Shown in pieces: positions 1,222 through 49,747 of a stretch of 64,000 nt of DNA. The stretch lies in the IMG/VR virus record IMGVR_UViG_3300023218_000062, one strand, 5' to 3'. The position numbers and the translations under genes are program-made. Under the pieces are notes generated by a model, which was not told the DNA's origin, did not search any database, and worked only from the letters and a program-made list of their open reading frames with translations. This stretch comes from a virus (lineage: Duplodnaviria > Caudoviricetes). Within the stretch, counting starts at the first letter, position 1, and every line of letters starts with the position of its first letter.

Positions 1222-1491
1222 TTAACCATCACGCCTATTCCATTTTGCAGCAACTTCTTCGATAGAATCACCATGTATTTCAGCATCACATCCCCCAGCT
1301 AACTCAGGACATCGTATAAGCCAACAAGGATTATCGGTATCGAATCTCTCATTAGCACCTACATATATTCTACCAACTTCTTCGTGTGAGCGCCAAAATG
1401 TTCCACTGGGATATATTGTATCTCCATCTCTCATATCTGGTACTTTACCACAAAACGGACATGATTTTAAGTTGATATCTTCTTTATTCAT
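1222..1491 (-). CDS. Lar-family restriction alleviation protein
   Basis: N-terminal LKSCPFCG, a second C-x7-C pair and C-terminal AAKWNRR. Confidence 0.7.
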   Translation of the reverse strand: MNKEDINLKSCPFCGKVPDMRDGDTIYPSGTFWRSHEEVGRIYVGANERFDTDNPCWLIRCPELAGGCDAEIHGDSIEEVAAKWNRRDG

Positions 1492-2068: not shown

Positions 2069-2144
2069 TGGCAGGTGTGCAAGGATTTGAACCCTGACCA
2101 AGAAATTTGGAGTTTCCTATGCTGCCATATTACACCACACACCT
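2069..2144 (-). tRNA. tRNA-Trp(CCA)
   Basis: Acceptor AGGTGTG/CACACCT, loop CTCCAAA, T-loop TTCAAAT, G73, CCA; D-stem has U11-A24. Confidence 0.95.
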
Positions 2145-2239: not shown

Positions 2240-2316
2240 TGGTTGCGAGGGCGGGACTTGAACCCGCACATAGAAGGTTATGAGCCTCTCAATCTACCAG
2301 TTGATATTACCTCGCG
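2240..2316 (-). tRNA. tRNA-Met(CAU), initiator-like C1:A72
   Basis: CGCGAGG/CCTCGCA acceptor with C1-A72 mismatch, loop CTCATAA, CCA; only two of the three initiator G-C pairs in the anticodon stem. Confidence 0.9.
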
Positions 2317-2520: not shown

Positions 2521-2629
2521 TTATCTTATTATGATTCTTTCATGTTGTCAAGTATTTTCTGTTTCTTTCTTGGTAAAATATTTCTTTATTATTGGATTCT
2601 TATCAACAATGTCTTCCATATGAAGCTTC

Positions 2630-2869
2630 CTATTTTGTGATATGTTTTACTGCTCACATCACTGCTTCTTCAATTTTGGTTTTAGCTAGTGATAATTCTC
2701 TAGAGCTACCAACCATATTAATAAGATTATGGAACTCTAAACCGGCATCTTTAATACCCTTCATGAGTTGTTTTTCTTCATCAGAAAGAACTCTGTATTC
2801 ATGACGCATAATATTATTAGTGGTTCTTTCATCTTGCGTAGAATCAATTATTTCATTATCTTTAAACAT
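2630..2869 (-). pseudogene. Acb2/Tad1-family nucleotide-sponge-like gene with in-frame UGA at the conserved Trp
   Basis: SD GAGGA and ATG at 2869; ...RELSLAKTKIEEAVM-[TGA 2654-2656]-AVKHITK-TAG; family motif EEAxMW recalled from Tad1 and T4 Vs.4/Acb2. Confidence 0.7.
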
Positions 2870-2895
2870 TATCTTATCCTCTTGGTTGTAAATGT

Positions 2896-2983
2896 TGGCG
2901 GAAGGGGAGGGGGTCGAACCCTCACCGCTATTACTAACGGGACACCTTTCCAAGGTGCTTGATACACCAGTTTCCGCCCTTCC
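2896..2983 (-). tRNA. tRNA-Ser(GGA)
   Basis: Anticodon arm GCACC-TTGGAAA-GGTGT, long variable arm, G73, CCA; compact D-arm with TGGT loop. Confidence 0.9.
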
Positions 2984-3577: not shown

Positions 3578-3654
3578 TGGTGGGTCTGGAGAATTTCGAA
3601 TCCACGACCCTCTGCTTGCAAGGCAGATGCTCTCCCGGACTGAGCTATACCCCC
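3578..3654 (-). tRNA. chimeric/degenerate tRNA-Ala(UGC)
   Basis: Good D and anticodon arms (TCTGC-CTTGCAA-GCAGA), but the acceptor GGGGGTA/CAGACCC has 3 mismatches and no G3:U70. Confidence 0.65.
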
Positions 3655-7620: not shown

Positions 7621-7692
7621 TTGTGGAGCTACGGGGTAACGATCCCCGCCATCGTGATTGCAAATCACAAGTCTGTCCCATACAGCAGCCCC
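7621..7692 (-). tRNA. tRNA-Ala(UGC), non-canonical D-arm
   Basis: Acceptor GGGGCTG/TAGCTCC with G3:U70 and A73; TGTGA-TTTGCAA-TCACG; T-loop ATCGTTA; 3' ACAA. Confidence 0.75.
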
Positions 7693-7749
7693 ATTACTAT
7701 ATGACAATAATACCTCAACAGTTCAATATTGCCAAGGTGTTTTTAAAAA

Positions 7750-17430: not shown

Positions 17431-17452
17431 TTAAATTAGAGATTTTAAATTG

Positions 17453-19426
17453 ATGGCAACTATAAGATATAAATGCGATGCCTGTTTGCGAGAAGTAGAG
17501 CTTTTAGAGAACAAAACAGGGTTAACTACTCTATCAAATTGTATTATTACAGAGAATTGTAGGGGGTCATTATTCAAAATAAGAAGAAATAATCGTTCTC
17601 GTGTCAGCTTTGGTGAGGAAGATATTGATTTGAATAACAACCTTATGAATCGTAAGGAACGAAAAGTATTTTTTCCCTTTTCCAAAGATATTCCATCAAA
17701 ACGCTGGGTTGTTCGACATAACTTAGGTTCCTTTCCGGCTATTTCTGTCTTTATTGAAACTGATGATGGGATTAATATACGAGAAGCAAATAAGTCAGAA
17801 TATACTAGAAGAGATATCGACAAAAATACTTTAGAAGTTGTATTCAATGCAAACCAGACTGGTAAAGTTCATGCAATATCTAGAAGTATATCTGATCAGG
17901 ATATACCTCAATCTACGCTCGTAGAAAATACAATAAACATATCTCCTAATGGCACTCTTTCTATTGCAGTATTATCCAAAGCATTCGGGGAATCTTCTAT
18001 TGATCCTCAAAACCCTATAGATGTTAGATTTGATGTATCATTAAAAGAACCTAATGAAGAAGAAATTTTCTGCGTAGAAGAATTTAAGAATGGGCTTCGT
18101 TCCCCGTGGAGCGATTATCAGGCTATGTCTTTTAGAAAACGTAGAAATTATATTGTCAAAACAGTAAATTTATTGGATCTTAAAGTCATACAAGAAAGAT
18201 ACAATTCTTTAACTGAAATACCCGAATTGACTGAATTTAAGTTTAACAGTATTAGTTATAATGGATCTGTTTTTAAACCCATCCGATCAAAAAATGCTTT
18301 AATTTTGTTATCTTCTCCACCCTATACTAAATCAGATAAAATTATGGATAAAATTATAGATTTAGGTGAGCGAAATGAAGAAACAAGCGGACGAAAATAT
18401 ATTTTTTCTAATGGAAAGTTATTTGCAGTTGAAGATGATATAGAAAGAGTATATCCCCCTATAGAAAAAGATGATATTCTTTTTAAGGTCGATGATTCTT
18501 TTGGAATTGCACCTACACCTACTCCTACACCATCAGTATCTGAGAGTGCTACACCTACACCTACACCTACTCCTACACCATCAGTATCTGAGAGTGCTAC
18601 ACCTACTCCTACACCATCAGTATCTGAGAGTGCTACACCTACACCTACACCTACTCCTACACCATCAGTATCTGAGAGTGCTACACCTACTCCTACTCCT
18701 ACACCATCAGTATCATCAAATCTTTGGAGTCCAGCAGATACAACAACCTCTCTTTGGTTAGAAGGCTCAAATAGTAGTTCTTTTATATTAGATGGGAGTC
18801 TAATTGATTTATGGAAAGACTTATCCACTAACAATAGAGATGCATCACCTCCTTCTGGTAGACCTGCATATGATGCCCAAAATGGCGCTGTTGTATATGA
18901 TGCAAGTGAGCAATTACTAGCTCCACAATTTAATTTCTCGGAAGGTGTTGTTGCAATAGTAGCAGAACAAACGAACCCGTCGTCGACGCAACAAAATACT
19001 ATAATACGAGATGATAGTTCAGGAAATTGGAGACATCTTTTAAGATGGGTAAATCCTTCATCAGCGAGCGACTTTAATGCATTTATACAAACTGATTTAG
19101 CAGAGGGTATTGCTACCGTGACCTTGCCAAATGATCGAATTTTACTTATTGTTCGATGGATGGCAAGTGATGAATTACATATAGTACGAGAATCAGGCAA
19201 TATTATATATAATGAAACCCTAATTGGAAATAACTTATTACCAGCAAATGATATCAGCATTGGATCACACCCTACTGGTATAAATGGATTAAGAGGTAAT
19301 TTACACGAACTTATATATTTCCCAATGGATTCAGATATAGAAAAAGTCGAAGGTTATCTAGCGCACAAGTGGCAACTCACTAATAGATTGCCCACAAGCC
19401 ATCCGTATAAAAACAGTCCGCCTTGA
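17453..19426 (+). CDS. putative virion protein: N-terminal domain, Pro/Thr/Ser linker and LamG-like C-terminal domain
   Basis: [10 protein letters not shown] repeats; the C-terminus [23 protein letters not shown] is paralogous to the end of 47556-48023. Confidence 0.75.
18511..18714 (+). repeat. (TP)nSVSESA coding repeat
   Basis: Unit ACACCATCAGTATCTGAGAGTGCTACACCTAC(T/A)CCT. Confidence 0.95.
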
Positions 19427-47555: not shown

Positions 47556-49747
47556 TTACGGTGGTGCATTTTTATATGGGTGGCCAGTAGGTAGTAGATT
47601 TTCTAAATTAAGCTTGTGCAGAGCCCACCCCTCCAACTTCTGGCGATCTGATTCACTCGGTGCTTGTGCTAGATAACCTCGCATTGCTATGTGGCCACTG
47701 AACCTGATGTTCCCCGATCCTAAATCAGCAGCGGCCGAACCATTTTGATTTTCAGTGTTGGCGGTTGTTTCCGCTCCACCATTGAGCCTAAGTCTTATAA
47801 GACCATCACTATACTCTTGGCCAGCCATCACCCACTGTGATAAAAGTATAGATTGTTCAGTAAACCTTGCGGATCCATCCCAATGATACGCAATAACATT
47901 CGGTCCTGAGCCTGTATCCCTCATCATCAAGTTGTGCCATCCAGCACTGTTGTCCCCAGATATGGCGGCATTAAACCATAACGTACCAAGATCAGATGCA
48001 TTCGTTGGCAAAAAACCGCCCAATCGTAGTAGCTGCCATCTATCGCGCCAACATCAAAACCGTTATCAAAATTCCCGGACATAGGAGTCCCAGTAGAAAA
48101 CTCAGCAACGTCGCCAACAGTCGAGTCATTGACAAGCGCTACGCCGGAGGATGCACCGAACGTAAATGAACCACCATTAACATCTTGTAGTTGTGTCAGA
48201 TTTGTACCATCGTCGGTTCTAAAGTTTTGTTCAGTGGTATCGAACCATATAGAACCAGATATATCGGCAGGTGTCCATGTGCCACCCACGACACTCTCAG
48301 ATACTGATGGTGTAGGTGTAGGCGTAGCACTCTCAGATACTGATGGTGTAGGAGTTGGTGTAGCACTCTCAGATACTCATGGTGTAGGTGTAGCACTCTC
48401 AGATACTGATGGTGTAGGAGTTGGTGTAGGTATTACGTTTACATCCGACCCGATTTGGAAATATTCTTTCCCATCTTGTATTATACTAAGTTGATCTGAA
48501 CTAGGATCTTCTATAGGAAAACTTATTATAGTCGATGTGGGATCTGTATCATCATATGTAAATGTTTCATCCCATTGACGTATTTTAAGTGCTTGTGCTA
48601 TACGATCTATTCTACATGCAAAAGCATTTATTGCATCTTGACTGCCTGCAAATGCTAGCCCAACTATTTTTTTAACACCATTAAATTCTGCTATTAGTGC
48701 AGATCCAGAATCTCCACCATCAATTATGCCATCACTCCCGTCAGAATGTTGGTAATGTATTATATCCCCGAATGGAATTGAAAAACTCCCATTATCAAAT
48801 CCCACATTTATATTAACGCTCAATCCTACCGCTTCTATTGTGCAGGCAGGATCTGTTCCCCATCCCTTTGGTCCTGTTGTTCGTCCCACAGAAAACATTT
48901 TCGGTTTGGGAGAATCTAATAAACTGTCTATTTCTAACGTAGATGCAAATGGTAAAAATTCGTTGGATTCAGTCACTCCCGAAGGATGGTGTATTTTGAA
49001 CGAATCAGTTTCACTTATATTTTGTGGATTCATTATAAGCAGTGCAACATCTACATAATTCATTCCACCGTCATTGCGAATAGGGTGATATCTTTTAATA
49101 TCAGATGATACACTAATAATGTTATCTGCGAATCCAGTTCCGCTTCTTGCTCTCGCAGACGAAGAGTATGGTTGGCCATCCACAGGCCAATTAAATTCTT
49201 TTTTTGTATTATATGGATTATTACTTTCTTCATTTTTATCTCGATTTGAAGTAAATAATAATTTATCTACTACAACATGGGCATTAGTTACACCTACAAT
49301 TTTATCATCTATATTATCCACTCCAAAAAATCCTAAAGTCCCAAGACTGAAACCCGTCGGCGCTCCTGAAGAATTAACTGCCCAATCAAGCGGAAACTTT
49401 ATTATTTCTTGGCCGCCCTTTAACGGTGTAATTAATGATGGGTTTCCTCGTAATTTCAGTATATCTGGGTCATTAGGGTCAGAAAAACATCCCATGAATT
49501 TTATATCGGCTATTTCTTTAACATCAGTTTTAATTCTCATTCCGTCGATTTCGAGTTCTTCGGGAACTATTTCAGAAGGTGATAGTTGATTTAGAGGTTT
49601 TTTTTCAGAAACACTTACTCTTATACATATCTCTTCTGTTTTTTCCCCATTTTTTTCTTTTCTGGAGATTGATATAGATTTACAATTGTATTTATTTTCT
49701 TTAAAGAGTTTTTCTATTCTGTTTTTTATGTTTTTATTGATATCCAT
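47556..49747 (-). pseudogene. trypsin-like serine protease, Pro/Thr/Ser linker and LamG-like domain, split by a TGA and a frameshift
   Basis: Triad TNAHV/DVAL/GDSGS in 48377-49747; a TCA>TGA change in one repeat copy (48377-48379) is in frame with 47927-48289; a shift at the A6 run near 48010-48015 leads into 47556-48023. Confidence 0.75.
48290..48431 (-). repeat. (TP)nSVSESA coding repeat
   Basis: Same DNA unit on the minus strand. Confidence 0.9.

Follow-up and report, generated by a model that had tools for sequence, protein, structure and literature searches.

A TGA stop at the invariant tryptophan codon of an Acb2-family sponge gene in an uncultivated jumbo phage

Does an in-frame TGA, eight codons before the place where its relatives end, mark a sponge gene that has been switched off, or one whose product is completed by reading the stop as tryptophan? 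The question is raised by a short gene in a 64,000-nt stretch of an environmental Caudoviricetes genome (IMG/VR record IMGVR_UViG_3300023218_000062), hereafter the window. The initial annotation described an anti-CBASS/Thoeris-type sponge gene with the TGA exactly at a conserved tryptophan. It offered two alternatives, a recent TGG>TGA knock-out or a gene made full length only by tryptophan read-through, possibly with the help of the phage tRNA-Trp.

Layout, family and fold of the gene

The gene lies on the minus strand between two tRNA genes, and the features on which the argument depends are the following.

2630..2869, minus strand: Acb2-family sponge gene, with ATG at 2869, an in-frame TGA at codon 72 and the ancestral stop TAG at 2632-2630
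2654..2656, minus strand: TGA replacing the invariant Trp codon TGG, codon 72, one G>A transition from TGG
2630..2653, minus strand: undecayed codons AVKHITK (n=7) and TAG, the former C-terminus, last two turns of helix 2
2877..2883, minus strand: Shine-Dalgarno sequence AAGAGGA, 7 nt before ATG 2869, read directly from the sequence
2896..2983, minus strand: tRNA-Ser(GGA), 26 nt upstream of the Acb2-family gene, found by ARAGORN
2069..2144, minus strand: phage tRNA-Trp(CCA), about 490 nt downstream of the Acb2-family gene, found by ARAGORN, candidate UGA reader

The product has 71 amino acids under translation table 11 and ends at M71 (P0003), and it has 79 when the TGA is read as tryptophan (P0001). 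On the minus strand the 3' end of the gene reads GAA GAA GCA GTG ATG TGA GCA GTA AAA CAT ATC ACA AAA TAG, the last triplet at 2632-2630, so that KTKIEEAVM is followed by TGA, AVKHITK and TAG. The true start is ATG 2869 with its Shine-Dalgarno sequence. The mechanical list of open reading frames gave 2654..2953 instead, beginning at TTG 2953, which lies inside tRNA-Ser(GGA) and is a false start, as the initial annotation had recognized.

Several small features were observed in the surroundings of the gene. A 23-aa open reading frame (MEDIVDKNPIIKKYFTKKETENT, 2548-2619, minus strand) begins with an ATG 7 nt after an AGGAAG that overlaps the TAG of the Acb2 gene, and a promoter-like TTGACA-17-TAAGAT (2551-2523) stands after it. 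An 89-aa protein encoded at 1222-1491 (minus strand) resembles the Lar restriction-alleviation family, at a score below threshold (26 bits, with a cut-off of 28.6); this Lar-like protein and Acb2 suggest a small anti-defence cluster within the tRNA array. The tRNA gene at 2243-2316 (minus strand; Rfam, 43.5 bits) was missed by ARAGORN. Its anticodon is CAU, C1 and A72 are apparently mismatched, as they are in the initiator tRNA-fMet of bacteria, and its anticodon stem is without the usual three G-C pairs. Two genes resemble tRNA-Ala(UGC), one at 3581-3654 (minus strand), seen by Rfam only, and one at 7623-7693 (minus strand), which is 71 nt long, with an odd T arm and no encoded CCA. For the two genes that ARAGORN missed, the anticodons CAU (2243-2316) and UGC (3581-3654) were read by eye, and neither gene is a suppressor.

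The sole Pfam match of P0001 was to PF24729, Acb2_Tad1_hairpin (E = 1.7e-20; 73.4 bits, with a cut-off of 27 bits). It spans residues 25-79, equivalent to profile positions 2-58 of 58, and thus crosses the TGA and reaches the end of the profile; the truncated P0003 also has a precomputed match to PF24729. PHROGs gave matches solely to families of unknown function. More than 4000 homologues of the protein were found in metagenomes, and an alignment of 40 sequences (A1) contains 29 invariant columns, with W72, V74, K75, H76 and T78 of the tail among them. An AlphaFold2 model built on A1 predicts a two-helix hairpin with helices at 30-53 and 57-78, where pLDDT exceeds 94, and a disordered N-terminus. 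The best Foldseek matches to this model were T4 Vs.4 (7uq2) and PaMx33 Acb2 (8h2x and 8h2j), with a probability of about 1.0 for 8h2x_E and 8h2j_A and with E-values that are weak (0.1-0.4) for a fold of this small size. The hairpin-domain search that the initial annotation had suggested and the structural matches both uphold its assignment of the gene to the Acb2/Vs.4/Tad1 sponges.

Among the characterized proteins, Acb2 of the Pseudomonas phages PaMx33 and JBD67 (8h2j, 8h2x) has the same Pfam domain and the same helical hairpin, at an rmsd of about 1.5 A (1.4-1.5 A over 78 columns in the Foldseek superpositions on 8h2x_E and 8h2j_A). Identity to PaMx33 Acb2 is about 26%, the lengths are 79 and 94 amino acids, and PaMx33 has an alanine at the subfamily's invariant tryptophan. 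Sequence and profile alignments place Y25 and K40 opposite PaMx33 Y11 and K26 (T4 Y8 and K23), and R57 and T64 opposite PaMx33 R67 and T74; all four residues are invariant in A1. In PaMx33 Acb2, Y11 and K26 belong to the dinucleotide pocket and R67 and T74 to the cA3 pocket (PMC10312549). All four mapped ligand residues precede the TGA.

T4 Acb2 (Vs.4, 7uq2) shares the ...AKTK.EEA.MW... helix, in T4 with the motif ...EASMW..., and has its tryptophan at the same position (W76). Its Y8 and K23 are conserved here, while T4 has no equivalent of R67 (D61 in that place). Identity is 40% over 53 columns aligned by hhalign, with insertions in T4, and 21-22% over the whole fold by Foldseek. Tad1 (CbTad1, 7uav, 8kbe) has the PF24729 hairpin domain in common with the protein, but is larger (about 125-140 aa) and carries an extra gcADPR-binding domain. 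Its profile and fold similarity is weak (46-54 columns), and it ranks lower in Foldseek with a partial match only, far weaker than that to Acb2. On the evidence of the profile, the alignments and the predicted fold, the gene at 2869..2630 is an Acb2-type sponge gene by descent, closer to Acb2 than to Tad1. It is nevertheless an interrupted member of the family, because with TGA at codon 72 the product ends at M71 and the C-terminal helix is not completed from an unbroken frame.

The TGA codon among relatives and contigs

All 160 relatives that were fetched (80 IMG/VR and 80 metagenome loci) have TGG at the position of codon 72, which agrees with the invariance of W72 in A1 and confirms that the UGA falls exactly at the conserved tryptophan. 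After the TGG these relatives continue with AVKH[ILV]T[KRAG] and then stop at the same place, extensions being rare; none of the 160 ends early, one of them being cut by a contig end. Among full-length relatives P0002, encoded on a 270,653-nt contig, is the nearest at 89% identity, followed by P0004 at 81%. The two proteins finish with ...EEAVMWAVKHITK, and their tail AVKHITK, which is among the commonest in the family, is identical to the one encoded here after the TGA. Judged against these sequences, the match of the seven post-TGA codons to the family tail is exact and far beyond chance. The frame after the TGA, with its stop at the family's usual place, is the former C-terminus, in line with the initial annotation, to which it looked like a natural one.

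No decay was found: upstream of the TGA every invariant residue is retained, and downstream of it the tail and the TAG are intact. Relative to P0002 and P0004, the protein has about three to five private changes (I20, N51, M52, perhaps Q12 and S55), which fall at variable or conservative positions; P0002 has as many private changes or more, and the terminal branch of the protein described here is not accelerated. At the sequence level this undecayed state fits a very recent mutation and would fit equally well a truncated or read-through product that is still under selection.

Six recorded contigs, drawn from JGI/IMG and Logan and up to 246,638 nt long, encode exactly the 71-aa P0003, and the version with tryptophan, P0001, was absent among about 15 billion proteins. 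The flanking 143-aa and 89-aa proteins are also found on six contigs each. The adjacent 55-aa protein is found on five, with a three-residue variant on a 2,777-nt contig, and genes 2-6 kb away are found on four, with variants of one or two residues on a 32,878-nt contig. There is therefore probably microdiversity in the flanking genes around an invariant truncated allele, with more than one strain sampled. The most economical reading of these contig counts, some of which may include re-assemblies of the same samples, is that the TGA is common to every sampled genome of this phage, one or more slightly diverged strains among them. In the neighbouring proteins P0158, P0161, P0164 and P0167 the variants on the 2,777-nt and 32,878-nt contigs, with one to three residues different per protein, mark at least one sister strain.

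Other searches for close relatives returned little. An exact 32-mer with TGR at codon 72 had no match in the viral and genome contig collections, a metagenome search gave no sister strain among the matches listed, which were distant relatives, and a neighbour-gene scan of viral contigs gave no match. No GenBank phage matched the window at the DNA level, and the ribonucleotide reductase of the window has at most 50% identity to that of any isolate. No second Acb2 copy is present in the window.

Consequences of the truncation and rival readings of the TGA

The best explanation, which we consider probable though well short of certain, is that the Acb2 sponge gene of the window carries a nonsense mutation that is real, fixed, confined to this lineage and still open to reversion, and that leaves the gene naturally off or weakened. 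With the normal code of the phage, translation would end at the TGG>TGA change at the invariant Trp72, and the 71-aa product would lack WAVKHITK, the final two turns of helix 2. T4 vs.4 was located in NC_000866 by the Pfam model and then aligned, which gave Y25=Y8, K40=K23, T64=T68, W72=W76 and I77=V81. By ungapped extension of this alignment T78, which is not aromatic, lies opposite T4 F82, and the lost WAVKHITK corresponds to T4 W76-Q83, F82 included. In T4 Acb2, F82 base-stacks on the bound cyclic dinucleotide, and the escaper F82C has diminished binding and no longer triggers Panoptes (PMC12657218). Since this part of T4 Acb2 contacts the ligand and is the counterpart of the lost tail, of whose eight residues five are invariant in the subfamily (W72, V74, K75, H76 and T78), the 71-aa product has probably lost its activity or much of it, at least towards dinucleotides. 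By homology to T4 the tail would lie beside the cyclic-dinucleotide pocket. Such an off state would cost the phage its evasion of CBASS and would spare it from defences that sense sponges, such as Panoptes.

Lesions of this kind have precedents. In wild-type PaMx41, acb2 (orf24) is interrupted by a TAG at codon 37, and CBASS selects TAG>CAG revertants, at 3.7e-5, in which the 94-aa protein is restored (10.1101/2022.03.30.486325). Fourteen of 15 T4 escapers from Panoptes have acb2 loss-of-function alleles (frameshifts, premature stops and deletions), and T2 is reported to have a natural mutation that probably disrupts the dinucleotide site only (PMC12657218). The same authors regard the natural acb2 lesions of T2 and PaMx41 as signs of conflict with Panoptes in the wild (PMC12657218; reviewed in PMC13712596). 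We liken the TGA allele to the PaMx41 stop because it is present on every contig on record, is undecayed and is one transition away from reversion. Both are natural premature stops with an intact downstream frame that one base change would restore, but the PaMx41 TAG, at codon 37 of 94, costs the greater part of the protein, whereas the TGA at codon 72 of 79 costs only the last eight residues. The T4 alleles, which Panoptes selected, were derived in the laboratory, whereas the present one comes from environmental assemblies. By analogy with these phages we infer that avoidance of Panoptes may be the selective reason for the loss.

It is rather unlikely, in our judgement, that the truncation instead separates two functions, i.e. 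that the 71-aa protein folds, assembles and keeps its trinucleotide pocket (R57 and T64) and loses the dinucleotide pocket only. A phage with such a protein could go on blocking cA3-type CBASS without tripping a system that uses dinucleotide decoys. Such an outcome is favoured by the position of the four mapped ligand residues, all before the stop, by the retention of every invariant residue in the upstream 71 codons, and by the model, in which R57 and T64 lie close to the turn of the hairpin and the lost tail belongs to the other, open end. The two pockets of PaMx33 Acb2 are independent (PMC10312549), and the T2 mutation would be a natural case in which the dinucleotide site alone is affected. 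However, eight of the 22 residues of helix 2 are lost, including an invariant tryptophan of the buried type, which may destabilize the hairpin or the hexamer, and the lack of an early end among the fetched relatives speaks against a truncated form that works. Moreover, Type II Panoptes senses the sequestration of cA3 as well (PMC13712596).

Under table 11 the coding density of the window is 91%, with open reading frames of up to 3122 amino acids, and TGA terminates 20 of its 65 genes (about 31%), including genes of 976, 658, 476, 456 and 434 amino acids. Several of the genes that end in TGA have 41-149 open codons past it, and no Pfam domain was found to extend across three other TGAs with long open extensions. 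A tandem back-up stop within three codons was seen in 10 of 20 TGA genes and in 11 of 38 TAA genes, small samples from which we draw no conclusion. Ten tRNA genes were found in the window, none with a UCA anticodon.

In the tRNA-Trp(CCA) of the phage U11 pairs with A24, position 9 is G, and G27.U43 is the top pair of the anticodon stem. The fetched loci contain four other tRNA-Trp genes, which represent two distinct sequences (L092, L095 and L129 are identical; L121 differs) and have C11-G24. The changes G24A and A9C promote UGA read-through (PMC13092985). The phage tRNA is like the Hirsh suppressor (E. coli G24A) in having A24, here paired with U11, and its anticodon stem has the normal 5 bp. 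A24 is also the natural state in many tRNA-Trp. Because of the U11-A24 pair, some insertion of tryptophan at the UGA is plausible, and low-level read-through may be possible on this analogy. UGA is read as tryptophan in this way when the A1 protein of Q-beta is made.

That such read-through is functional, with the A24 tRNA-Trp(CCA) providing a regulated low dose of full-length sponge, we regard as improbable. In its favour, the tryptophan inserted would be the very residue that stood there ancestrally, with a complete tail after it, the tRNA gene is only 490 nt away with its U11-A24 and a weak G27.U43 top pair, and two other distinct phage tRNA-Trp have G24, the base whose change to A promotes read-through. 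No leaky context or stimulatory structure was found at the TGA, however: the next base is G, which in E. coli makes for comparatively good termination, and the local 8-bp hairpin, at whose edge the UGA lies, does not fold significantly better than shuffled sequence (z = -1.4, equalled by 18 of 200 shuffles). The absence of the TGA from all the fetched relatives means that there is no conserved family design, in which it differs from a programmed site, and efficient suppression would be costly to a phage that ends so many of its genes with TGA, some with long open frames beyond. A sponge also acts stoichiometrically, by mass action, and full-length subunits at a few percent would have little effect; and A24, as noted, occurs naturally in many tRNA-Trp. 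The read-through part of the initial annotation thus found no positive support beyond the A24 of the tRNA-Trp. Of its two alternatives the recent TGG>TGA knock-out is favoured, by the six contigs, the uniqueness of the change to this lineage, its undecayed state and the precedents of PaMx41 and T4.

A second gene of the window also contains an in-frame TGA with homology on both sides, which could count in favour of read-through. It lies at 47556-49747 (minus strand), and its TGA at 48379-48377 replaces the TCA of a repeated linker of 12 residues. A paralogue at 17450-19426 can be aligned on both sides of that TGA (48520-48179), after which the similarity moves to a different frame (47972-47559). 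By this alignment the gene is broken twice, by the TGA and by a frameshift near a T run at about 48010-48015, and reading through the stop would not suffice without a frameshift as well. Its 456-aa truncated product is found on four contigs. The broken accessory genes suggest a lineage that is accumulating lesions, which would favour plain mutation over design.

A dosage valve, in which the UGA is kept and read by the A24 tRNA-Trp at a moderate rate, would yield mostly inactive 71-aa subunits with a small, tRNA-dependent dose of full-length protein; we think it quite improbable. If it were true, the phage would blunt CBASS and would not drain the decoy nucleotides that Panoptes-like, sponge-sensing systems monitor.

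A sequencing or assembly error, with G (TGG) as the real base, is very improbable: the change is a one-base difference in a metagenome-derived genome, but two independent assembly sources and pipelines give the same truncated product and the tryptophan form has no record, so that the TGA is not the error that the initial annotation had thought reads might reveal. A change of code, with TGA meaning tryptophan in phage or host, is a negligible prospect, since the frame is indeed open and conserved across the TGA but the dense coding under table 11 and the ordinary use of TGA as a stop, which rules out genome-wide recoding, stand against it, as do the lack of a UCA-anticodon tRNA in the window and the restriction of homology across a TGA to the Acb2-family gene and the one doubly broken gene. 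Selenocysteine was rejected as well: no suitable SECIS hairpin lies downstream, and the ancestral residue is tryptophan.

An acb2 allele in the wild

Acb2 aids phages against CBASS, and some homologues aid them against Thoeris, but it triggers Panoptes; phages are therefore expected to toggle acb2. Natural off alleles have so far come from a few cultured phages, PaMx41 and T2, and the present one belongs to a jumbo phage that is known from the environment and has not been cultivated. It is a minimal lesion that removes only the tail, which would stand next to the dinucleotide pocket, and it may therefore serve as a clean natural test of the role of the tail. It also bears on whether wild populations carry both acb2 states. 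Most likely it is a natural off allele that one step would revert, of a kind already known in other phages.
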